NCBI GenBank assembly: GCA_965287045.1
Contig: CBDIYR020000004.1
Location: 4,588,001 to 4,652,000 of the forward strand
Source: Carcharhinus amblyrhynchos
Taxonomy: Eukaryota
DNA: 64,000 bases
Direction of reading: 5' to 3'
Shown one piece after another: positions 1-62,421 of this stretch. The translations under genes were made by a program, and so were the position numbers. How positions within the stretch are numbered: the stretch's first letter is position 1; each line of letters begins with the position of its first letter. Below the pieces are notes generated by a model that was not told the origin of the DNA, did not search any database, and saw nothing but the letters and a program-made list of their open reading frames with translations.

Positions 1-2845
1 CATGTCTGCACAGCATTACCCTGGGTCTTGGGATTTGTAGTCCAGTGACAATACCATTGCCAATACCTCCACTGCTCTCTACCTTTGTGCATGTCAATGT
101 GTTTATCCCAGTATATATCTGTATGTGTATTGACATGTGTATACATACAAATCAGTGTGTATATCTATATCTGTATAGAGGTATAACCGTAACTATGTAC
201 CTAAATGTAACTATGTCTGTACAGGGGTTAAAACTAATAGCAGCAAAACACTCAAACTCTGTCCCGTAACCTCCTGTCAGTGATCACTTTGTGATTGCCA
301 GATCCTGTGTTGTGTTTTGCTGCTATGGTGATGGATAAGTCTCTGCTGCTGAGAAGCATTGGGAGGAGTAGGAACTGCACAATGGACTACAGCCCGTATT
401 ATTGCAGCAAAGTAAATTTGTAAGTACCAATGAGCCAAAACCAGCACAGGAATACTGGAGATGGGAGAATGGAGGCAAGAGCAAGTCTTTAAATATATTT
501 TGTAAATCACATCTAGTGATAGATGAGGGTGGAAGAATCTCTCTGCTCCTTGAAACAACATCCACCACATTATACATTCACTTACAATTACACCTCATAT
601 CAACAGAGCAGGGTCCTTGGCTGAGGGGTGCCTCAGAATTTAATGCAAGGCAGAAGATATCATATGTTGCAATGGATTCAACCGCAATAGGTGAAAGAGG
701 GGGAGACAACATTTGGTGAAAATGTGCAATGAAACTTCAGTAACAGAAACCTTTCAAGATGTAGTTGAACAAGCAATGATAGACTGATCTGCTGCCGAGC
801 CAAAATGAGGGTAAAATCCAGGCTTTGCCCTTTGACCTTCTCCGAGTTGCCCTCAGACTAGCTCAAAAGCAACTGTATTCCATTGTTGCTCAGTGTTTAG
901 ATGATGTCAATGAGTGTTTGAATGGACACTGAGAAGACGGTGATGCGCTCTACCATCTCACATACAGTAAAGATACAGTAAAATTTGATACTGCAAATAA
1001 CCAGCAGCAATGGAATGGAAATAAAAATGTTTGCATATACGATCGAAAGTGGAAGTGGGTCACAACCAAGGCACAACACAGCTTTCCAGTACTTGCTCAT
1101 GATGGTCAACACGTTAGCTTGATGGGCCAACACTCCCATGGGCGTTCATCAGTTCTCAGCCAGACTGGTCACAAAACAATGACTTTCAGGTCTGCCCAAC
1201 CAGGTTCAGAAGTTAACCTGCCTGGGAAAGTTATCTGAAGTTGTCCATTTGCTTAGAATTGAGCTGTAGGCTCAGCTACCACCTCTAATAGCTGCAACTT
1301 CTCCACCCCCAGCACCCTCTCCACTAATAATTATGCTCAATGAGCATGGATGACCAACGAAGACCAATAAGATATAGCCAGACACTATGCCCCATGCCAA
1401 CCCTACTAAATTAGAAGGAATGGGAAAATGGATCCCTAATTCCAGTTCCTACACCAATTCTGATTGGCACTGGGCTGCACCAGAATTATCAACCATTCCC
1501 AAATGTGAACAATGGTTTCTGAACCAAAAGGATTTGGCATCACAGACTCTCCTCAAGTCTCTCCCAATACCATACCCTCCATTTTAAGATGGAATGTTGC
1601 AAGGAAGAGTGGGTTGGAGTAGTTCACAGCCTAAATGGAATTGCACTGGTGAAAATGGTGCAGTGGAACTTTCAGGAGAAGCCAACAGATCTGACATTGT
1701 CCTCCTCACCTGTTGCTGTTGGTCAGAAATTCCAACCAAAATTCTTCAGGCAGAGAGAGAGAGAGAGAGAGAGATCTTTAGGGAGAATCAGAGGGTGTGA
1801 TAACACTCTAGTAAATGTTGCAGAAATAAAAGCAGGTATAGGCTATTCAGTCCCTCAAGTCTTGCTTTTCTATGCAATTAGATCATAGCTGATCTTATAT
1901 TGGCCTCACTCCACTTTACTGTCTGTCCCCCATAACTCTTAACTCCCTCGTGGGATGGCTGAGAACAGGTGAAAACATACAAGGGGAGGCTGATGTTTCT
2001 CTCACCTTGGATGGTGCCCAATGGAAACACTAAGCCAGCAAGATAGAATGGCAAATTGCAAATCTGTCACAGGTCATACAAGTAAGACTTCTTAAGAGAG
2101 CACAACACAGTACAAACCATCAAAATTCATTTTTGTAGGCAAAAGAAAATTCAAGCCAGGCAACTACAACCATTTGGCAACAGACTAAAAGCTGACAAAC
2201 ATGCGATACAGACAGAAATCCAGCTTCAACACAACATCTTGGACACACTTTTTTGTGAAACTTTCAATCTAACAGGAGGCAAAGAAGTTAACACTTTGCT
2301 GGATTCCAGTTTCTTTTGAGGAAAAGCCACCTGCCCACTGTACTTCCACCCTCCCAACTCAAACTCCTCCATGAGACCTCTTGCCTCTCCAAAATCTCCA
2401 TTAGTTGAGAGCAAAGGCAGGCAGGGAGGTGGGCACACCTGTGACTCCATCGGCTGATGGGGAGGGAAGATCTGCTTGAGAGGTTAAGGTGGGTGAATTA
2501 TCATATATACCTCCAACCCTTTCCATCATCCCCACCAACCAATCTGGTCTGGTCTTGCTACGTTACACTTAATAGCCCGTGGGACCTGCCACTGAGGTGG
2601 TCACCATACACTTGGTCCAGACCGGATTACAAGGTCTCTTTTCTGGAACTATGCTTCAAGCTCCTTCTCTTTTTAAAGGACTGGTACCAAAAGAAAAATT
2701 TCCAAATTGAACTTGGTCCAACTGGGGGGGAGGGGAGGGGATATATTTCTGAATTCACCTGACTTAGGCAACCCACTTCATTTCAGTATTTCGTGAAATG
2801 TTTATCTCTGCAAAGGAACAGTCACAGATTAAAAACAAAATCATA

Positions 2846-2973
2846 GGGTGGAATTTTAGGGCCTCTGCTATTAGCAGTATTTTCTGATCATGCCGAAGTC
2901 AATGAACTTTTGAAAGGTTCACAACATTTTCTGTGACCTGTTCCCACCACCAGGGGGCTGTAGAATTCTACCC
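2846..2973. mobile_element. Short MITE-like element
   Basis: Terminal inverted repeats GGGTGGAATTTTAGGGCC ... GGCTGTAGAATTCTACCC. Confidence 0.6.
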
Positions 2974-5900
2974 ATGGAATCTGCAAAAGTGGAAACTTTA
3001 GGGAAAGATTTTGTATTCAATGTTTCCTATTTAGAGATTTGAATATTGAGGAGGCCTATTCTCAGTTGAGGCCTAGCTTTCTGAATGGAAAATTGTCTTC
3101 CTTGTTCACTATGTGAAACAATACAACGTGATGGGCTTAATTAGGAAGCTGCACTGTGCTGTGTGACAGCAACCAAAAGGTGCGGTCCTCTGGGATCCCT
3201 GGAAGAAAGGCCACTTGGTTGCAATGTCAATCTCTTTTGGTGACCCAGAGAAGGTCTTAGTGTGACTCCATATCAGCCTGGACTCAAGAGAGCTAGCATT
3301 TGCTGCTGTGACTCAAGTGGCATGCGCTGGCAAACCCTAAGACCAGGACTAACCTTTGGAGGTAATGAACCTTTGTTGCACAGTAAACTGAAAATTAATA
3401 ACATGACGTGGGACGTATGTGTGTGCTAACACGGTTGACATGTCAAGTGGCAAGGCATAGGTCACGTGGGGACATATTGGTTGAAACGACAAATGGACAT
3501 GCACACAGACACTCATACACGCACAGCGACAGACACAAAAAAAAAAGCCACACCACCTCACATCGACTTTGCAGACACGTGTGAAAAGATCTTCAGTGCA
3601 GTCCTTGTCTTAGTTCAAGACTCTCTGATGGAGTATCAGTCCAAGGGGCATCAGGGACCTTGCAGTAGTGCCTGTACCAAGTAAGATGGTGACCTCAGTT
3701 CTTAAGAGCTCTTCAAGTAAAGGCCCTCCACATTCCCCCTCCTCCAACCCCCAACAACCTGGCCCCTTATAGGCCTCTCCAAAGACACTTCTTCCAGTCC
3801 ATCAAGGCCTTTGAATCAAGATGTTTCCATCCATTGTACTTTTAATTTCAAAAACAATGTTTATTTGTTGGTGGAAAGGGGAGTGGGGCAAGGGTGAAAA
3901 GGCAAAACTGCAAGAGGTCTATGAGTACATTCGCTCGTGAAGATGTTGTGTAGATTTGATTTCTGACAGCTCTGAAATAGCTGGCCTGCTGGAGATGTGC
4001 AACAAAGTCCAATATCTGCCCATGTCTTCACCCTCCCTTACTGCCACCATCCCCCAAAACCACTGAATACAAATTATTGCAACCAATTTGAGAAGGCCTC
4101 CAATCCATTTCACATTCAGTCCTCTTTATTCCGCCATTGATGGGGGAAACAACAAACCGTGCAAAGAACCTCCAACGACTTGCACTGCAGCTCAACCTTA
4201 GGTGACCCATCGCTTAGATATTGGAACTTTTCACACATCTCTGCAGCCTTCAGATCTTCTGAAAGCCAGGGATACTGCAGCTTAAAAGATTTCTCCCTTT
4301 TCTTTGTCTCGTACCTTCTGGTTCGCTGCCCTCAAATGTCGGAGGAGGTACAGGCGGCGCAAGACACCGTTCCAGCCAGGGTTTTCTAGTCGCCTCCGAG
4401 TCGGTCAACAAGGCCCTCACGGCGCGACCATCTCCCCTGCCCCCTTCTGCATGTGAACGGAGCATTCTTTCCCCACACCCAGCTAACAATGTGCCACACA
4501 ATCAAAACCACCAGCCCGAGGTGTGACCCCACTTACCGGGTCCTGTGGCCAAACTTGAATGTAGATCCAGAATTAATTTTTATATAAATATATATATATA
4601 TACAATATATATATACTTTTTTTAAAAAAGAAGAATTAAATGCGATCGGTGTAATACCCTGTTTACCCTCCCCTTCCCGCGCACCCCTTTCCCCCCTCCC
4701 GAACTCCTCCCTCCCAAAAAAACCTGTCCAGCCAATTAGAGAACTCATTTTCCTGCCCAGGTTGCCTGCCAGAAGGACATCGCGGTCTAAACGCCGCCCT
4801 CAGTAGGTCCCGCGCCAACGGAAACCCGAGGCAGATCAACGTCAGACCAGCTGCTGCCCCCCTCCCCCTTCCAAGCTGTACTCGAAGCGGCGAGCCTGGC
4901 GACGAACGAGGCGGGGGTCTCCGCGGAACTTGGCCTCGATCCGGCTCGAAGCATAGTCCTTGGCGCGGTGAGGGCGAGGTGGGTGGGCAGCGGGTGGGGC
5001 TGGAAAACCATTTTGCTTTTTTTTGAAGGAATGCTCCATTGACTTCCAGAGGGGGGGTTGAAAAGTGTTAGGCAGGCGGATTAGAGAGAAGTGTGGGTTA
5101 GGCGAGGGCAGGGTTGGGGGGGGGGGGGAGGGTAGGAAAGAAGGCGTAAGAGAGTAAGAAAGGAGAAAAGAGGAAAGGCAGGAAGAGAAATAAAGAAATT
5201 TACATATGTATTTGCAATATTAGTACAATTTGTTGGCACAATTTCCATACCACAAAGGTATACCTCACAAAGCACGCACACATACAGACACATGTATATA
5301 TTGAATACATATGTAGATTATATAGATATATATCACAATCATTAAAGCAATAATGTTAGTTATTAGATGCTGCATTTCCAAAATGGTTGCTCAGCAAAGT
5401 TTTCTACAGCCTCTACAGTACAGATTACAATAGCCGCCTCCCCTCACACCAGGGAACAGTGATGACCATGACACTTGGCGAAGGATGGGGTTATCGAAAC
5501 CACTTGAACCTGACCGGGCTGAGGATAGGGCGCAGTGCCCATCTGATTGCCAAGCCCACCGTGCACCTCAACAAAGACAGGATCATCTGGACAGGACATG
5601 GAAGCCGGCCGCGCACCCTATCCGGCCACCCTCCCCGTTTTGGCTCCCGGCCGCTGTGAAGTGACCACCCCGGTGGGGCGCTGGTCAGGAAAGGCAGCCT
5701 GTAATTGTACCCTCAGCCATCGCCACCGCCACTTGTAGGTAATCCTACCGGGAGATCGGAGGCCCCGGTTGGTCACGTCTGCCCGTCTTGCGCCACTGTC
5801 GCACACCTTGGCCGTGGTAGCTCGTCTGCAGCCGCCCCATAACCGTCACCCAACTCCGCCTGTCTTGACCCCTTTTCCTGACCCGCCAAGAGAGACATTC

Positions 5901-6060
5901 TAGAAGGTTCTTTCTCCATTGACTCCCCCAACCGCCCATCCTTTTTCTTCCCCCAGTCATTTTATCATTTCCTCCAAGAAAGATGCGATGAATTCATCCA
6001 CTTGACATTGAAGGTAAGGGTGGGTAGGAGAGGGTAGGCGCCCTAACCCTGGAGAGCAGG

Positions 6061-6285
6061 TGGACAACCCCCATCCCGCAGCCCTTCCCCTGGGGCCATC
6101 TCGCGCGCCTAACTGTCCCCGCACGCGGTCAGTTTAAATCTCGTCCCGCCCCTCCCCCACTCGCGACCTATCAGATTCCGAGCCTGCCGCTCGGCAACCG
6201 ATGGCGTCAACAGAGGACGCAGCTCCGATTGGTGCAAAGGCGCGGACCGGCGCCCATGGAGGGAATTCTCACGATCGGCAGGTCC
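6061..6285 (+). promoter_or_regulatory. Left arm of inverted duplicated promoter module (RFX X1 / CRE-like X2 / NF-Y Y box)
   Basis: TTTAAA 6133, CCCGCCCC 6145, CTCGGCAACCGATG 6190-6203, TGGCGTCA 6202-6209, CCGATTGG 6225-6232. Reverse-complement match to 7079-7280. Confidence 0.75.
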
Positions 6286-6821
6286 ATCGACGGGCGCATG
6301 TGCGCCCTCACAGCGCGCGGTGGGGGGGGGGGGATCCAGAATGTTCTACCGAGAGCGAGCGGGCGGCCGCTTTGGAAGGCGTCGAATGGGGGAGTGCGGT
6401 TCAAGAAGCCCAGGTAGGGGAAAATCGGCTCTGAAAACCTGTCGTCCGTTGACCGCCCCCCTTTCACAGGATTCGTTAGCTGCTGGGGCGGAGTTATAGC
6501 AAGTGAGAATGGAGGGTTGGGCTGATAAATCGCGCTCGACGCCCGACCAGATACTGGACTACATTAACGTGGCGGCGTCTCTGACACCAAGTCAGGTTAA
6601 GCTTGAGCTTAGGCCTGTCAACAGACGCAGCGTTTTGTTTTCTATTTGGGAGACAGGCTCTTGTGATTCTCAGTGCCTTGGAGAACCTGGGTGTGAATTA
6701 TGGGCATTGGTTCCCACCAATTTCGCAATAAACCCTGTATAAATACCACGCAGGTTAATCTTTCAGGAAACAGGAGGGATGGAGTGTAAAATAGATGGTA
6801 GATCTGTTACCTAAGTTGTTA

Positions 6822-7078
6822 AAGTTTTATCTATTAGTCTGACAAGTAAGCTTACATTAACACTGCAGTGAAGTTACTGTGAAAATCCCCTCAGTTGCCA
6901 CACTGCGGCGCCTGTTCGGGTACACTGAGGGGGAATTTAGGATGGCCCAATACACCCTAACCAGCACGTCTTTCGGACTGTGGGAGGAAACCCACACAGA
7001 CATAGGGAGAACGTGCAGACTCCGCGCAGTGATGGAAACTGGCAATTGAACCCAGGTCCCTGACACCCTGAGGCAGCA
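6822..7078 (-). mobile_element. HE1/V-SINE (5'-clipped), abutting the right promoter arm
   Basis: Reverse complement of the SINE body (ggactgtgggaggaaac...gaacccaggtccctg...gaggcagcag). Confidence 0.88.
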
Positions 7079-7280
7079 GGGCCAGCCAATCGGGAGGGAG
7101 CGAGTTCGTGCCTTTGGACCAATCGGATCGCAGTCCGCTGGTGACGTCATCGGTTGCCGAGCGGCAGGTTCGGAATCTGATAGGTCGAGAGTGGGGGAGG
7201 GGCGGGGCGGGATTTAAATGACCGCGTCTTAGGCGGGCGAGGCGGCCCCAGGGGAGGGGCTGTGGGATCGGGGTTGTCCA
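7079..7280 (-). promoter_or_regulatory. Right arm of inverted duplicated promoter module
   Basis: CCAAT 7086 and 7119, perfect CRE TGACGTCA 7142-7149, X-box CATCGGTTGCCGAG 7148-7161, GGGGCGGGGC ~7199, TTTAAA 7213. Confidence 0.75.
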
Positions 7281-8551
7281 ATTTCTTCCCAGATGGCACT
7301 GGGACTGTACATAGACTGCAGTGGCTCATTGCCACCTTCTATTGGGCAGTTAGAGATGGGCAACAAGCATCCCACAAAGAAAACAGAGATTCAGCTCTTG
7401 GCTTCCAGTGAAGACAACTAATAAAACATGACCTGGTCAATGCCCAGTGACCACGGGTTAGATGTCAATCAGTGAAATACCGTGGAAGTGCAACTAAAGT
7501 AAAACAAACATAATTTGTGAATGGAGAGAGTTATCCTTCAAGAACAGGAGGCAGAAAGAGAATGTTATTTCAGGAATCAAACCCAGGTTTGAAAATGACG
7601 CGGCTCTGCACACACAGTTCCTGCACATTTGGATGTCAATTTACGATCTGTTCGTATTTATGTGCTTGAACAGGGTTTGGTTAGAAATGGTACGGGGTAA
7701 GGCAAATTTAACTTACCTTGCCTGTTCGGAACCAGTGGGATTGTATGCAATGCTATTTTTATCTCTTGCCTGAATTGACTTTATTAAAGTCAACAGATAG
7801 GTTGTAAAACTGACTTTCCACCTGAATCCATAGGATCCCTGCATGTGAGTTTGGGCATAATGATCCCCAATATTTCAGCAAGCTAAAATTCCATCTATCT
7901 CCTCCCTATTAGGACTACGTATGGAACAGATAGTGTTGATCCTCCCAAATGCGAAATCGGACAGATTTTGGCCTGAAAATTTCATTTTGGGAGCTAGTTG
8001 ATATGTGGTAAGTCTAGCATGTTTGGGAGAAACAGCTGATTTTTGAACTTCTGCAGTTCAACATTTTCCACCACAATTTTCTTCAAGCCATGACTGGGTC
8101 TTTTGTAGACTAGTTGATGGAGATTGCTGTGATCAGTAAACAGCTTCATTATATCATGTAATTATCAGTAATTCCTATGTTCCTAACACATTTCCATTGT
8201 GTCCTTTATATGTTGGGTGGTGTTTGCACGTATCTAGCCGTGTCATATTTTATAATAATTAAATCAAAACTATTCCTATTTCCTTTCCTGCCTTATTCTG
8301 TCTCCACCACCAAACGGCCCACCACCACCACTACTCTCTCCAGGCTCTCCTAATCCCCATTGTATTCAGAACATTTTGGTGTTTCATATTTGCCAGCTAA
8401 ATTTATCAGGAACTGCAGGGGCCTACCCATGTTCAGAATTCAAATTCATCTTCTCACCAAAATGCCTTAATCTCACTTTATCTGTGAAACACTTTCAAAG
8501 CCATTGATTAAAGCCACAGCTTACTTATTCCATAAATCCTGTTGCTTTGGT

Positions 8552-8855
8552 TTAAGTTTATTTCTTAGTGTCACAAAGACATTTACATTAACACTGCAAT
8601 GAAGTTACTCTGAAAATCCGCTAGTTGTCACACTCCTGTGCATGTTTGAGTACACTGAGGGAGAATTTAGCATAGCCAATGCACCTAACCAGCACAGTTT
8701 TTGGACTGTGGGAGGAAACTGGAGCATCTGGAGAAAACCCATGCAGACACAGACAGAATGTGCAGACTCCATACACATAGTGACCCAAGCCCTGGGTATT
8801 GAACCCAGGTCGCTGGTGCTGTGAGGCAGCACTGCTAACCACAGTGCTACCCTGC
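8552..8855 (-). mobile_element. HE1/V-SINE
   Basis: Full head (gtggttagcagtgctgcctcacagc), V-domain and tail shared with the 6822 and 35410 copies. Confidence 0.9.
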
Positions 8856-11274
8856 TGCTGGGTGGAGAAAACTCCCCCTTCCTGTTCTCAAATTTTAATC
8901 CAAATAGCCCACTAACCTCTCTACAATACAATCCTATCCCCTCAGACAATTTAATCCTCGCTGAATAATAGTGGTGGTTTTGTTTCTTTACAGTTCAGAT
9001 CAAATGAAATGAATCCCCATGCGCACACAAACTAATCACAATGAACTCATAACACTGGCTCCAAAAATAAAACCTCTCATCACAACAAAGTTCACTTGTT
9101 TGGCTGACTGCAAACAGTCCCCACAGTTCCCTAAATTCCATCAGTATAAAGGTGGTCCCAATACCTATGATTGACAGGTCTGTTCCTTGGAATCCACAAT
9201 CACCACTGCACAACAGAACCAGAAGAGATCTCTCACCAGGCACAGATAGGGATGACAGCAGAATAATGAGGGACATTTGGTAATATTAGCATACGCTCTA
9301 CTGCTTGGATAAAGTGAATTTCTCTTCTGAAATGCTGATTCATCAACAACAACTGCTTTCTGCGAAACCTGCTGCTTACTAGGGACATCATAATGATGGA
9401 ACAGAAACAGGTCCAAGAAAGTTTCTGGTGTAAATTGAAGGATGTCATACTTACACTCTGTGCTGCATCTCTTTAAAGTTTGCAGGAGGTGATTCTGAGT
9501 GGCAGGACAAACATTTATTTCCCAACCCTAGCGACATTGAAACAACTGGCTTGTTAGGCTACTGGAGTCATGAATCTGCCAAGACTGGGGAAAGACGAGC
9601 GGTTTCCTTCTCCAAAAGAAATATTGCAGCCTTTTCAGCATTGAAAGAAGTGACCTTACAGAGATATGTATTGGTTGTATTTGCATGATAATGATCCCAT
9701 TAATGCAAAGTCGTTTCACTTTGTAACAACAGTGCAAGGCCTAACTTGAACACAACCTCAACCTGGTTTCTGGCCCTGGCCCTAACCAAGTAAAATGATC
9801 TCTGGAGGAAGCAAATTTGTTCTCTTTTACATCAGAATCAGCCTGCTCATCTAAGTCCACTCCACACTTAGCAAATGGCTAGCAGAAAAAAAAATGGCCA
9901 TGATGGTTTTAGATTTGTAGTGTGAATGAGCTTCCCAAATGATTTTGCAAAAGCTACCACTACTTCAAACTAAAACTGTGAGAGTTAAGACAGGATGGTG
10001 GAGAGGGTTCCAGGCAAATTGTAGGTTGACACAGAGTGATCACCGCGTTGACTAAGCACTGGATCAGCTCTCTGCAATTGTTGAAGAAAGAGCTGGTGCT
10101 GTTAACAGGGGCACTAAAGGGTATTTCTGGAGAAATGGGCCTACTCCTTTAAGTTGCATATCTGTCTTGTTGATCTTTTTATTGACAGGTAATCATTCTC
10201 CTCCCTGCAGTACTCCTTTTTAACCAACTGATGGTGATATTGCTTTATATTGTCATAACGCTTAAGGCTGAAATCTGACGTTGCCTGAAGACATGCAATT
10301 GTGATCACAAATTAAGATTAAACAATTTGCTGCCCAAAATAAAACAATTTTTAGTATAAAAATGTGTCTGAGCTGATTTGGAGAGACTGAAAAAACTGTT
10401 AATTCACACCAAATAAGGCAAAAGAGGAGTACCATGGGCTGAAAGATACATTACTTTGGTGCTCAGTCTGACTTGGCAATACTGTTGTCGACTGTGGTTA
10501 AATATATTCCTGGAGGTTTCATCATATGACTTGCCCTCAAGCTCCAGCCATTCATCAGCCAACACACCCATCCTTGTGGAGTTCTACATTACAATGCCAA
10601 TTGGAAAGCAGAAAGACTCATCACCAAAACTAATAGCCAAAAAACGTTTCCTCTATCCCTCCCCCCTCACTGTTTTCAGTGATTTCATATCTGGTGTAGT
10701 GCAATTTAAAAAAAATCTTTTTTCATATTCCAACTAGTTTTCTCTAGGACTGCATGCAGCAGTGACTTGGTGATTGATCTTCAATTCCTTGAAGCTCCAG
10801 TCCAATTCTGGAGGTTTGGCAACCCTACTTTGGCAAATCAAGGATCATAGTTCTGGACTGGTGAACAGATTCATTTCTGATCTTGTTAAGATTGGAGGAT
10901 GTGGGAATCACAAGACCGTGTATCCCTCACAAATGAGAGTTCTGAGATTTTTCCCCCTCTGAAAATAATATGGGATGCATTTAAGGGGAATCTTGTGAAA
11001 TAGCGAAGGGATAAAGGAATAGAATGTGATAGGGTGACATGAAGGGATTCAAGTAGAGCTTAAACACCAGTTGGTGTGGTGTTGAAGATTCACTGTATTT
11101 TATTCAGTAATTTCTATATTTCAGCAGTAATTGCACTTCTAACGGTGCTTTAATTGGCTCTAACATATTTTGACACCTTCAGAGGCTTTGAAAGGTGCTA
11201 TGTCCAGTCATATTTTTTATTGTTACCAGTGTTGTGCATTCACTTCATGCATTCATGTAAAGGGTTGCTTGGAC

Positions 11275-12699: not shown

Positions 12700-13380
12700 T
12701 CTGTATTCCCATTAAACACTTCCAGGCCAGGTACTGCATGGATTTGATACAGAATAATGCTCCCTGTACACCTTCCCATTAAAAACTCCTAGGAGAGATA
12801 TGCCATTGGTTAGATATAGATTAAAGCTCCCTATGCACTGTCCCATCAAACATCCCAGGATAGTTAGAGCAAGGATTAGATATGGAAGGAAAGCTTCCTC
12901 TATTCTTCCTCACTGAAATCCAAGGGTAGGTACAGCATGGGTTAGATACAGATTAAAGCTCCCGATGCATTGTCCCATCAGACACAATGGGCATACATTA
13001 GATATAGAGGAATGCACCCTCTATGCTGTGCCATCAAACACTCCCAGGACAGGTACAGCACGGGGTTAAATATCGAATAAAGCTCCCTCTACATTGTCCC
13101 CATCAAACAATCCCCGGACAGATACAGCATGGGGTTAGATACAGAATAAAACTTGTCCAAATGTCCCATCGTACATGCCCAGAACAGGTACAGCAGAGAG
13201 TAGAGACAGCACAGGGTAGATACACTGTCTCTCTGCACTGTCCCCATTAAACATCCCCAGGACAGATACAGCATGGGGTTAGATTAAACTCTTACTACAC
13301 TATACTATCAAAATGCTTTCAAGTTAGGCATGGATTAAGTTAATTACAGACGAAAGCTCCCATTATACTTTTCCCAGCAC
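12700..13380 (+). repeat. ~67-bp tandem satellite-like array (~10 diverged units); shorter arrays at ~21175-21260, 33060-33230 (reverse), 44690-44860
   Basis: Unit approximately ctccctctacactgtccccatcaaacactcccaggacaggtacagcacggggttagatacagagtaaag. Confidence 0.85.
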
Positions 13381-17660: not shown

Positions 17661-17748
17661 CTGAACGTCGATTATCCGCTGCTTGGCATCAATGGCCTCC
17701 TGCATGTTGGCGTGGTCTTTCCTCAACTCGTCTTCCACCACCATTAAC
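17661..17748 (-). CDS. SYNGAP1: SynGAP coding exon (exon 18 equivalent), coiled coil
   Basis: Read manually as (R)LMVVEDELRKDHANMQEAIDAKQRIIDVQ. Boundaries cccacag|G ... CAG|gtacag; 88 nt, phase 2 to 0. Confidence 0.93.
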
Positions 17749-18829
17749 CTGTGGGCAGAGGCAAAAGGCAACACAACTCAGCAATTGAGAGAAGGCTTGG
17801 GTGCTTGTGGAGGAGCCATTGACATTTACCCTCATTTTGTGTCCCTTCTTGTCAAATCACAAGTATATCCACAAAATCCCAGATTTTATAAGTTGCTGGT
17901 TAGGCCTCAGCTGAAGCCAATTCTAAGCTTCAGAATGCTGTGGTCTGAGAGAGAGTGCAGAAGTGATTCATTGGAACGGTATCAGAGACTTTTATTGTGT
18001 AGAGACCTAGACAAGGTCAAGCTGTTCTCCATATAGCATCAAAAGTTAAGGAGGGATTTAAGAAAGGTATTCATAATTGTGAAGTGTTTTGATAAGTTAG
18101 TAAGCAGAAACTATTTCTACTTTTCAGTAAGCAGAGGACATAGATTTAAGGTAAACTGGCAAAAGAGCTGGAGAGGTGCTGATGAGAATTTTTATGAAAT
18201 GAGTTTGCTATGATCTAAATACATTTTCCATAAGGAAAGCTGATACAATGGCTTTCAAAGGGAATTGGGTGTATATTTGAAACAAAGATAAAAGTGCTAT
18301 TGGGGGGTGGGGGTGTGGAGAGGGTGGAGGGCAGTAATTCCATTGGCATAATTCAGCTAGCTATGCTTTGCACCTTCTCTAAGGTCTTGGCAGCCCTCTG
18401 AAAGTGCTGTGTCCAGAATGAGAGACAGTACTACAGCTAAGGCCTCATAAGCTATTTGTAAAGTTTAAGGTCTTGATGCAGAGTAAAGGTCCATAATGCC
18501 AAGTTTGAAATAAACTTGAAATAGCCGAGATGACTGAATAGTTCGCAGTCAGGTCTCGGGTAAACTAAATGTAGAGTTCTAAACGATTGAAGACTAGAAA
18601 AATGAGACGACTGGTGAGAAGCTCTTGGTGCTGAGTTTCTGGGAAGAATAAGTTCAGAGTAGAAGACAGTGTAGTCAGCCCAGATCTCAACCATAAAGGT
18701 GCAAAGAGGAGGCATAATGAAGGACTGAATGGTCTACTCCTGTTCCTATATAATTACTTATATAACCAAATGGGCTTGTGTTCCGAAATGTATCTCAGCA
18801 TCTAACTCTTTACTAGTCTACAAGAGGTT

Positions 18830-31914: not shown

Positions 31915-33062
31915 TCTAGATAAGGGTGAAATATGGGGTGATGTATTTGGACTTTGGAAAGTTTTTGATAAAGTTCCATGTAAGAAATTATTGTGCAAAA
32001 TTCAAGCACGTGGAATTGAGGGTAAAGTATTGGCATGAATTGAGAATTGGTTAGCAGATGAGATAGAGAGTGGGAATAAATGTTTTTTATTCCGAAGTGG
32101 CAGGCAGTGACTAGTGGGGTCCCACAGGGCTCAGTGCTTGAGCCCCGACTATTTACCATTCATATGATTTGGATGAGGGAACCAGGAGTAATATTTCAAG
32201 GTGTGTAGATGGCTTAAAATGTGGTGGGAATGTGAGTTGTAAGGAGGATGTTAAGAGGCTTCAACATAATTTAGACAAGTTTGAATGAGTAGGCAAATAC
32301 ATGGCAGGTGCAGTATAACGTGGATTAATGTGCAATGAACTAGAGAAGGAAAAACAGAATGGCAAAGTATTATATAAATGACGATAGATTGGAAAATGTT
32401 GACATACAAAGGGACCTGGCTGTTCTGGTACACCAGTCACTGAGAGCAAGTATGTTTCAAACGCAAATGCTATGTTGCAAGAGGACTTGAGTTAAGGAGC
32501 AAGGATGTTTTACTGTGACTGTACAGGATCTTTGTGAGACCATACTCAGATAATTGTGTGGTCTCCTTATCTAAGAAAGGATATATTTGCAAGAAAGGAA
32601 GTGCAACAAAGGCTCCCCAGACTGATTACTGGAATGGCAGGATTGTCATATGAGGAAACATTATGTCGAATGGCCTGTATTCATTGCAGTTTAGAAGAAT
32701 GAGAGGGGATCGGTTTGAAATGTGCTGAACTGAGTGGATGCAGGAAGGTTGTATCCTCTGGCTGGAGGGTCAAGAATAAGAGATCACTGTCTCAGGATGC
32801 AGGGTAGGCCATTTAAGATGAGATGGGAAACTTCATTTACAGGATGGTGAATTTGGAATTTTCTATTACAAAAGGCTGGGAGATCAACTCACTGAGTATA
32901 TTTATGAAAGAAATAGATATCTAGACTCTCATGGTTTTACAGAGTATGGAAAGAGCGCTGGAGAATGGCGTTGAGAAAGAATATTAGCTATGATCATGTT
33001 GAATGGCTGAGCACGCTCAAAAGGCCCAATTGCATACATTGCTCCTATTTTCAATGTTTCTA
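31915..33062 (+). mobile_element. CR1 LINE fragment (degenerate)
   Basis: gtgactagtggggtcccacagggctcagtgcttgagccc (VTSGVPQGSVL) through a CR1 3' UTR. Confidence 0.88.
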
Positions 33063-33253
33063 ACCCATGCTGTACTTGCCAGGGAGTGTTTGATGGGGGT
33101 AGTATAGAGGGAGCTTTACTCTGTATCTAACCCCATGCTGTACCTGTCCTGGGCGTGTTTGATGGAGATAGTGTAGAGAGAGCTTTACTCTGTATCTAAT
33201 GTGTGCTGTACCTATCCTGGGAGTGTTTGCATGTCAAATTTGGGCCACCTCAC

Positions 33254-60560: not shown

Positions 60561-62421
60561 GGTTTTATTGTCAGCCCAGCACACATTTCACAATTCCCAA
60601 ACTACCCTGTCCCACCAATTCCAGCGCCTCCCACACCTTGACATTGGGCCCTTTCAAGTAAAGCACATTTTAATTGTGATGGAGGTGAAATGGTTTTACC
60701 ACTGATTTTATATTTTCTTTAAAAAACAATTGAAGTACAGCGGAGCCTGACATGTAATCGGACCTTTTGATGTCAGATATCCACAGCATACGCCTGGGAC
60801 CTGCAACACCGCTCACTTCTCGGCCATTCCTGTGAATCTCCTCTTCCCGTGGATGAGCTTTAACTCCTATGGCTGTCCTCAAGCCCCCTTGCCCCAACTT
60901 CACTGATCCTTCTACCCAGGCCCCACTCCCCATTTCATTGCCACCTTTTATTTCATTTTGTGGGATGTGGGTTTCATTGGCTAGGCCAACATTTATTGCC
61001 CGTCACTAGTTTCCCTTGAGAAGGTTGTGGTGAGCCGCTTTCTTGAACAGCTGCAGTCCATGTGATGTAGATACACCCACAGTGCTGTCTGGGAGGGAGT
61101 TCTAGGATTTTGATCCAATGATGGTGAATTCCAAAATATTTCCATATCAGTGTAGTGAGTGGCTAGGAGGGCAATTTCCAGGTGGTGGTGTTCCCATGAA
61201 TCTCTGCCCTTGTCCTTCTAGATGGAAGTGGGTTTGGAAGGTGCTGCCTAATAAGTCTTAGGTGAGTCCCTGCAGTGCATCTTGTAGATGGTACACATGG
61301 CTGCCACTGTTCATCAGTAGTGGAAGGACTATATGTTTGTGGCTGGGGTGTCACTCAAGCAGATTGCTTTGTCCTGGACGGTGCCAAGCTTCTTGAGTAT
61401 TGGAGCTGCACTCATCGAGGCAAGTTTAGGGGATGCCATCAGACTCTAAATTTGTGCCTTGTAGATGATGAACAGGCTTTGGGGAGTTGGGGTGAGTTAT
61501 TTACTGTGAACTTTTCAGCCTTTGATCTGCTCTTGTAGCCACAGCATTTATGTAGCTAGTGCAATTCAGTTCCTGCCAACTGAGCCATTTTAAATCTGGA
61601 AGCTTTGGAAATGATTTAGAAGCTATCATGTTTCTGATCTATATAGATTGAATAGGTGGGATCCATCTTTGAGTAACCTGACACATGCTGGGGGAATAAG
61701 ACTGTAAAATGACAGAATGAGTGTGTGTTTGGATTAGAGTGGGGGGAACAAAATCAATTCAGGTCCCTGTTTTTGGAATTGCGGCTCAGCATGCATATGG
61801 TGCAAACATTGTGGCGGATGCTGTCTATTGTACAGTGGCTTGATGATGCTTACCCACTTGGTGTTATGGGTGGAGCACTGTTGTGTGATGCTGACTGTGG
61901 AACTGTAACTGCTGGGTGGATAGGTTGGGGGATGTCGGGGTGGAAAGTGAGGGGAAAAGCTTTTGCAAGAAGAAAATAATAAAATATGTATTGAAATGCA
62001 GTGGTCCTTTTAAATCCCATTTCACCGGGAGATGGAACTGGACTAAATGCATGGTTCTTTTAAAGAGTCTGCATAGGCATGAAGGATTTGACCTCCACCC
62101 TTTTCTACTAGATCTCCTTTCTCCAATCTACCCTCCCCACCTCTTCTTCTCAAAACTGATACAAGCCAAGAGGGAAGCAATTGTCATACATCCCCATCCC
62201 ACAACCCATGTGCTCCACCACTCTTATCCCCTTGCCCCTTTAGATTCCATACTGGCACTCCACACCCCCCCGCCACATCCCCTTTGCCAGGCTGGACACG
62301 ACGACTGGCGGACTCCGCTGCACTTCATGGCTAGAAGTGTAACACACCAACGTCAGATACAAACCCTGTGTTAATGGAGTGTCGGTAGCAGTGAGTGTAG
62401 CGGTCACGTACACCAACCTAC

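Follow-up and report, generated by a model that had tools for sequence, protein, structure and literature searches.

In an intron of the shark SYNGAP1 gene, we found a pair of inverted, CpG-rich arms of about 200 bp. Each carries an RFX half-site, a full or near-full CRE and an inverted CCAAT box, in the order and at the spacing of the X1, X2 and Y boxes of MHC class II promoters. Going by motifs and base composition, we put at about 0.5 the probability that the pair represents a locally duplicated CpG-island promoter or enhancer for RFX, CREB/ATF, NF-Y and Sp1 that acts independently of CIITA, with each copy likely working. A duplicated RFX–CREB–NF-Y promoter was the alternative offered by the original prediction, and it provides the best reading of the pair.

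Inverted arms in a SYNGAP1 intron

We use "the window" for the whole 64-kb stretch of DNA that was analyzed. A blastn comparison of the window against itself pairs positions 6061-6255 in inverted orientation with 7280-7096 (82.6% identity over 195 columns including gaps, E 3e-51), and recovers no further match to either arm in the 64 kb. By local alignment, 164 of the 184 paired columns are identical (89%), with 12 additional gap columns; two indels, of 9 nt and 1 nt, both lie upstream of the motifs. Beyond a 13-nt indel, weak similarity persists as far as ~6285/7079 (13/17), and the similarity outward, to 6049/7292, is also weak. The left arm, the likely parent copy, spans 6061-6285 (core 6061-6255, weak extension to ~6285), reads its motifs on the plus strand and has CpG-rich surroundings; the right arm, the likely daughter copy, spans 7079-7280 on the minus strand (core 7096-7280). 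The reverse-complement arms of about 200 bp reported earlier are thus confirmed by the arm-to-arm alignment, with the weak likeness to ~6285/7079 forming the ends of the originally reported extents.

The minus-strand gene in the window is the elasmobranch SYNGAP1, with a long exon that is 97-99% identical to shark and ray proteins. The donor of its exon ending in IIDVQ (17661-17750, minus strand) opens the intron 17660-5043 that contains both arms. These lie 1.0 kb and 2.0 kb upstream of the acceptor at 5042 of an alternative last coding exon (4842-5042, minus strand), which encodes 66 aa (SMEHSF...GQQLV) followed by a stop. This exon is 77-95% identical to annotated SynGAP isoform tails and matches six isoforms of Scyliorhinus, Heterodontus, Chiloscyllium and Hypanus among the 15 of 116 cluster members listed. 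The SYNGAP1 identity proposed earlier therefore stands, and the placement is corrected: the arms are inside an intron of the gene, not beyond it. The window yielded no match to the other last exon, ERQL...NGEF, which occurs in shark relatives and bony vertebrates; hence, this exon is either missing or lies beyond the 5042 exon on its downstream side. Near the arms there is, as originally noted, no recognizable MHC exon: none of the 112 frames of at least 45 aa in 1-9000 reaches the Pfam cut-off (two weak matches fall far below it). Rfam and ARAGORN return no matches and no genes, respectively, in the window. A GGLGNQM look-alike at 5617-5447 has no Pfam match and was set aside.

Organization of the motifs

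In each arm, the GACCTA, X1, X2 and inverted CCAAT elements share one direction. On the plus strand of the left arm, an S-like GACCTA (6165-6170) precedes by 19 nt a 14-nt X1 with the RFX half-site (6190-6203). This is joined by X2, a near-CRE TGGCGTCA at 6202-6209 (both boxes compared by eye with the human X–Y table), and 18 nt after X2 by the inverted CCAAT of the Y box (6225-6232, ATTGG at 6228-6232). On the minus strand of the right arm, the corresponding elements are the S-like box (7186-7181), a 14-nt X1 (7161-7148), a full CRE TGACGTCA as X2 (7142-7149) and the Y box (7126-7119, ATTGG at 7123-7119). Apart from this right-arm CRE, the 64 kb contain no full TGACGTCA. The distance from the end of X1 to CCGATTGG is 21 nt in both arms. 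The X1–X2–Y order, this 21-nt distance and a GACCTA about 19 nt upstream of X1 had all been described from the first reading, and each was recovered, the last at exactly 19 nt in both arms.

Beyond the S-like box, both arms feature a GC box and a TTTAAA, which that first reading had overlooked, along with a second CCAAT in the right arm (7086-7090) located 33 nt inside the first. The left-arm GC box (6146-6151) and TTTAAA (6133-6138) form a minus-strand segment, 6133-6151, facing outward, which is the SYNGAP1 sense direction. The right arm has two GC boxes (7200-7210) and a TTTAAA (7213-7218). The GC boxes are probably Sp1 sites and the TTTAAA a putative TATA-like box. Read outward, an arm has the layout of a normal promoter, with the CCAAT 94, the CRE 71 and the GC box 13 nt before the start of the TTTAAA; read inward, it has the MHC layout. 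The inversion of the copies makes each layout point both ways.

Comparison with known X–Y modules

For the comparison with human modules we adopted the X–Y length convention of the table in PMC4381081; further published sources were PMC2278383, PMC4374748, PMC4889920, PMC7753138, PMC6155461, PMC7866136 and PMC8455134. By this convention, both arms have an X–Y length of 49, with 18 nt from X2 to ATTGG. PMC4381081 gives lengths of 48 for HLA-DRA, 47-49 for MHC-II promoters in the text (46 for HLA-DOB in the table) and 46-50 for CIITA-regulated genes, and the usual distance from X2 to ATTGG is published as 17-18 nt. Thus, both arms share the order and orientation of X1, X2 and Y and the X–Y spacing with the MHC class II W/S–X1–X2–Y module of the HLA-DRA type (served by RFX5/RFXAP/RFXANK, CREB, NF-Y and CIITA), and the arm X1 matches the HLA-DRA row of the table by eye at 10 of 14 bases. 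The original comparison with HLA-DRA, namely the same RFX/CREB/NF-Y order at a similar spacing, is upheld by these values (49 versus 48).

The arms differ from that module in several respects. The S box is published at about 16 nt before X, and NLRC5 requires its own S box at 16 bp, whereas GACCTA lies 19 nt (GACCT 20 nt) before X1 in the shark arms, an off-register gap of 3-4 nt given that S-box borders vary between papers. Further, the arms are CpG-rich, their CRE is full or near-full, the module is backed by a GC box and a TTTAAA, and they lie in a SYNGAP1 intron with no MHC exon near. With the NLRC5-bound SXY module of MHC class I and BTN3A genes, they share the X and Y boxes and, in relatives, MHC-linked B30.2 exons downstream, but the S-like box, at 19-20 nt, is not at the 16-bp position of the class I-type S box. 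By anatomy the arms resemble an RFX–CREB–NF-Y X–Y module, and by S spacing and position they would fall outside the MHC S–X–Y family.

Human promoters outside the MHC offer a different comparison. In its core, the right arm has 19 consecutive bases identical to the X box of the HAUS5 promoter, the closest human match by eye in the available table. HAUS5 (KIAA0841) has a CpG promoter that is bound by CIITA, and its expression was not reduced without CIITA in PMC4381081; an earlier study reported a reduction. It is without a proper Y box, which both shark arms have. The RFX half-site abuts a CRE in the human CpG promoters of HAUS5/KIAA0841, PSMD3, RAB4B, TRIM26, ZNF672, RFX5 and MYBPC2, as it does in the arms, and several of these also have no well-placed S box in the published rows. 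In contrast to these promoters, at which binding was measured, the arms are twofold, inverted and situated in a shark intron, with binding predicted from their sequence. All 12 occurrences of TGACGTCA in the available human X–Y table (in 11 rows) are non-HLA. Published accounts report X–Y motifs at 479 human CIITA sites, most of them non-MHC, with most genes outside antigen presentation not being CIITA-dependent. They also report 4975 human sites co-bound by RFX5, CREB1 and NF-YB, among which high-scoring, well-spaced X–Y boxes are rare and the best are mostly MHC-II. Strict and loose X–Y patterns were made by hand and by eye from the HLA rows after the arms had been seen. The strict pattern recovers the right arm only (1 match versus 0.04 expected) and misses the left; the loose one recovers both arms and three other places (5 matches versus 1.6 expected).

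The distal X–Y modules of the human class II region are inverted. Like the shark arms, human distal X–Y/XL enhancers are situated away from an annotated start site, and a review passage describes the distal class II elements as binding RFX and CIITA and acting as enhancers. They lie among class II genes, whereas the shark arms are megabases off by sawfish synteny.

Divergence of the arms and retention of CpGs

The X1, X2 and Y columns contain 2 mismatches in 30, against 15 in 93 for the remaining ungapped core (p = 0.16); the motif columns were thus not significantly spared relative to the rest of the arm. The spacer between X2 and Y has 6 mismatches in 15 nt, and an equally poor 15-nt stretch arises in 24% of 20000 permutations; the best 59-nt stretch of the arms, with 2 mismatches, is reached in 7% of 20000. 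The original prediction had emphasized that the spacing was kept though the spacer had diverged. Both the spacing and the mismatches are as described, but the permutations (24%) and the motif test do not point to selection. As conservation of the motifs does not significantly exceed that of the remaining sequence, the arms count as a single observation that was copied, not as two independent ones.

The base composition of the arms is that of CpG-island promoters (thresholds GC > 0.55, CpG o/e > 0.65), with a GC content of 0.65-0.67 and a CpG o/e of 1.07-1.10 versus 0.29 window-wide. An intragenic CpG-rich island, 5600-6600 (no strand assigned), surrounds the left arm, with a CpG o/e of 0.7-1.5 in 8 of 10 bins of 100 nt. 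The right arm has CpG-poor flanks and is separated from this island by ~500 nt of CpG-poor DNA. Its 185-nt core contains 19 CpG, a count reached by none of the 2821 segments of 185 nt in 7400-64000 (maximum 13). The two arms have in common 14 of 26 CpG sites versus 4 of 17 in two repeat pairs of equal 10% non-CpG divergence (p = 0.048), and show deamination-type changes at 3 of 26 versus 7 of 17 in the same pairs (p = 0.031), a comparison that involves just two small repeat pairs and that nearness to the island could explain. Over all 28 repeat pairs, which are not independent of each other, 13 of 158 CpG sites are shared. The kept CpGs would be a better sign of function than the motif columns: they suggest unmethylated, bound DNA, and we infer that both arms are unmethylated in the germ line.

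Origin of the duplication and a candidate mechanism

One third of the spacer between the arms is filled by a repeat (6818-7088, minus strand), which we take to be a SINE. Six more copies are found in the window by blastn, and all six retain the head that the copy adjoining the right arm lacks: in that copy, the inner end of the arm stands in place of the first ~10 nt. The junction bases resemble the left arm and the repeat head alike, and the outer ends of the pair show no target-site duplication. Since it interrupts the SINE head and is flanked by CpG-poor DNA, the right arm is likely the younger, daughter copy. A piece of 200-230 bases of the late-intron SYNGAP1 CpG island was thus copied in inverted orientation 0.8 kb away, probably by fold-back or template switch aided by the short likeness at the junction.

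In the duplicated promoter that we favor, RFX would occupy the half-site, CREB/ATF the CRE, NF-Y the CCAAT and Sp1 the GC box, and the bound factors would keep both copies open and unmethylated. The arms might then start or boost local transcripts within SYNGAP1, either sense or antisense, with sense products potentially reaching the 5042 exon or the RING-less B30.2 exons downstream. In a scan with a rough donor matrix, under whose cut-off 6 of 9 true donors also fall, the minus strand from the left arm to the 5042 exon had no strong donor, and plus-strand donors came out at 6013 and 6413; an antisense product is thus as open as a sense one.

Linkage to the MHC and the downstream B30.2 exons

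In the available sawfish gene table (PMC10751288), the gene order is CUTA, SYNGAP (10.19-10.66 Mb), ZBTB22-like and PHF1, and no nested or antisense gene is listed inside SYNGAP. At sawfish positions of at least 9.49 Mb in this table, the first MHC-Ib gene is seen at 12.29 Mb, 1.6 Mb from the SYNGAP 3' end, followed by B2M at 13.08 Mb (2.4 Mb) and class II at 16.69 Mb (6.0 Mb), with class Ia and PSMB9 past 17.1 Mb. Hence, of the MHC-linked region originally proposed, what stands is that SYNGAP1 is on the MHC chromosome of the sawfish. This linkage holds only at the level of the whole chromosome, and the evidence for it comes from a different species. The arms are intronic in SYNGAP1 and neither precede MHC or antigen-presentation genes nor lie in their midst, and the sawfish MHC genes seen are 1.6-6 Mb away.

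Relatives place exons for RING-less coiled-coil/PRY-SPRY (B30.2) proteins downstream of SYNGAP1. Among the 32 B30.2 models, 17, from three species, are fused to SynGAP, and 15, from 12 species, are stand-alone with first exons that are unrelated or missing; four whale-shark transcripts encode one common 323-aa B30.2 protein. In the window itself, 120 B30.2 relatives gave no real tblastn match, and no RING or B-box pattern occurs in its six frames. SynGAP–B30.2 fusion isoforms are annotated in Chiloscyllium, Stegostoma and Mobula, and sharks and rays have identical residues at the 13 positions before the first Met of the B30.2 tail, suggesting that the fusion is real and conserved. A literature search that covered few subscription papers found none on such a fusion.

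Alternative explanations

A locally duplicated promoter accounts for two copies in 64 kb, the kept CpGs, the HAUS5 likeness and the outward promoter layout; the motif test, the donor scan of the minus strand and the lack of a nested or antisense gene in sawfish SYNGAP argue against it. The first choice of the original prediction, a twin platform for CIITA/NLRC5 that serves MHC genes, is not supported. The S spacing is off, the site is intronic in SYNGAP1 and the MHC genes are megabases off in the sawfish; moreover, the published human CIITA X–Y sites are mostly non-MHC, and the full CRE occurs only at non-HLA sites of the human table. A broader version, in which one or both arms are CIITA/NLRC5-responsive X–Y sites that raise a nearby MHC-linked gene, most plausibly the downstream B30.2 exons, we consider possible but unlikely. 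That the best of the well-spaced human X–Y boxes are mostly MHC-II favors it over the duplicated promoter, and the X–Y length of 49 with 18 nt from X2 to ATTGG fits CIITA-regulated genes; many published CIITA sites have no S box. Human B30.2 genes of the MHC (TRIM26, BTN2A2, BTN3A) use X–Y modules, orthologs of CIITA and NLRC5 are published for sharks, the whale shark having both, and the stand-alone B30.2 models and the common whale-shark protein also speak for it. However, the B30.2 exons are outside the window, past its position 1, more than half of their models (17/32) are fused to SynGAP, the conserved 13 residues before the first Met fit translation from an upstream coding exon, and the sawfish MHC genes are distant. 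It is rather doubtful that CIITA or NLRC5 controls an MHC-linked, RING-less B30.2 gene, one also joined to SynGAP by splicing in a conserved fusion, through a twin X–Y enhanceosome site in shark SYNGAP1. If it did, cartilaginous fish would have their first described site of this kind, and enhanceosome control of B30.2 genes would date to the first jawed vertebrates.

It is likewise possible, if unlikely, that only the left arm (or neither) matters, the right arm being neutral, with its CpGs saved by the nearby unmethylated island or by conversion. Evenly spread divergence, motifs that are not significantly spared and a location on a repeat without an island of its own are all consistent with this, but such a neutral copy would have to retain 19 CpG, a perfect CRE, two GC boxes and two CCAAT boxes across a CpG-poor gap of ~500 nt. 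The arms might instead act in RNA, folding back in the SYNGAP1 pre-mRNA and shifting the choice of the 5042 acceptor or attracting editing. The predicted duplex (-349 kcal/mol, 187 pairs) would lie 1.0 kb upstream of that alternative acceptor, but three unremarkable inverted SINE pairs within SYNGAP1 reach -283 to -317, and a duplex leaves the transcription-factor motifs unexplained; we hold this to be improbable. Least credible is a non-autonomous DNA transposon of 1.2 kb with the arms as its terminal inverted repeats. The inverted arms do flank a spacer, but their outer ends are without a target-site duplication, neither they nor the unique spacer have a further copy in 64 kb, they are CpG-rich where the repeats of the window are eroded, and there is no coding remnant.

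As an ordinary duplicated promoter, the pair would matter little in itself. It presents, in a shark and away from MHC genes, an RFX–CRE–CCAAT layout with MHC-II spacing, in keeping with the view that the enhanceosome grammar is a general promoter layout that MHC genes also use. The arms further constitute a natural variant pair, with a full versus an imperfect CRE.

Wider searches and additional observations

No paper on shark X–Y modules or on the arm locus was found in the literature search, which covered few subscription papers. For 5400-7700, 23 sequencing runs from 11 studies were listed, none of them an RNA run; the overall shares of the segment amount to 0.50, 0.28 and 0.24-0.26 in runs of three organisms and to <0.2 in 12 rows. 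A metagenome scan with the 66-aa exon gave 596 pattern matches, none confirmed, and a homolog search with the same exon found 0 though matching proteins exist, and is thus uninformative. The 21-nt core had no match in viral contigs and one in metagenomes (L001, 70% GC, flanks 15/60 and 20/60), which was judged to be due to chance.

Several features of the host gene are recorded here in their own right. Six isoforms from sharks and rays end in GQQLV, as does no bony-vertebrate or chimaera tail among those examined (77 SynGAP-type proteins overall); the second codon of the 5042 exon is an in-frame ATG in all six relatives, making a 65-aa product possible. Read-through of the donor at 17660-17625 (minus strand) gives VQKIITSKINK and a stop, which resembles a chimaera isoform tail and, presumably, the intron-retaining SynGAP beta form. 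At 62354-62410 (minus strand), tblastn continues 18 residues beyond the usual exon end; the extension also occurs in elasmobranch models but not in the chimaera, lungfish and coelacanth matches. Beside the left arm, the GC-rich unique DNA of 5400-6013 might be an antisense exon: it has a long pyrimidine tract that ends in CAG near 5956 and, at 6013, a strong donor on the plus strand. Finally, 12706-13284 and 33055-33229 belong to a tandem-like repeat family with 8-9 overlapping self-matches by blastn.
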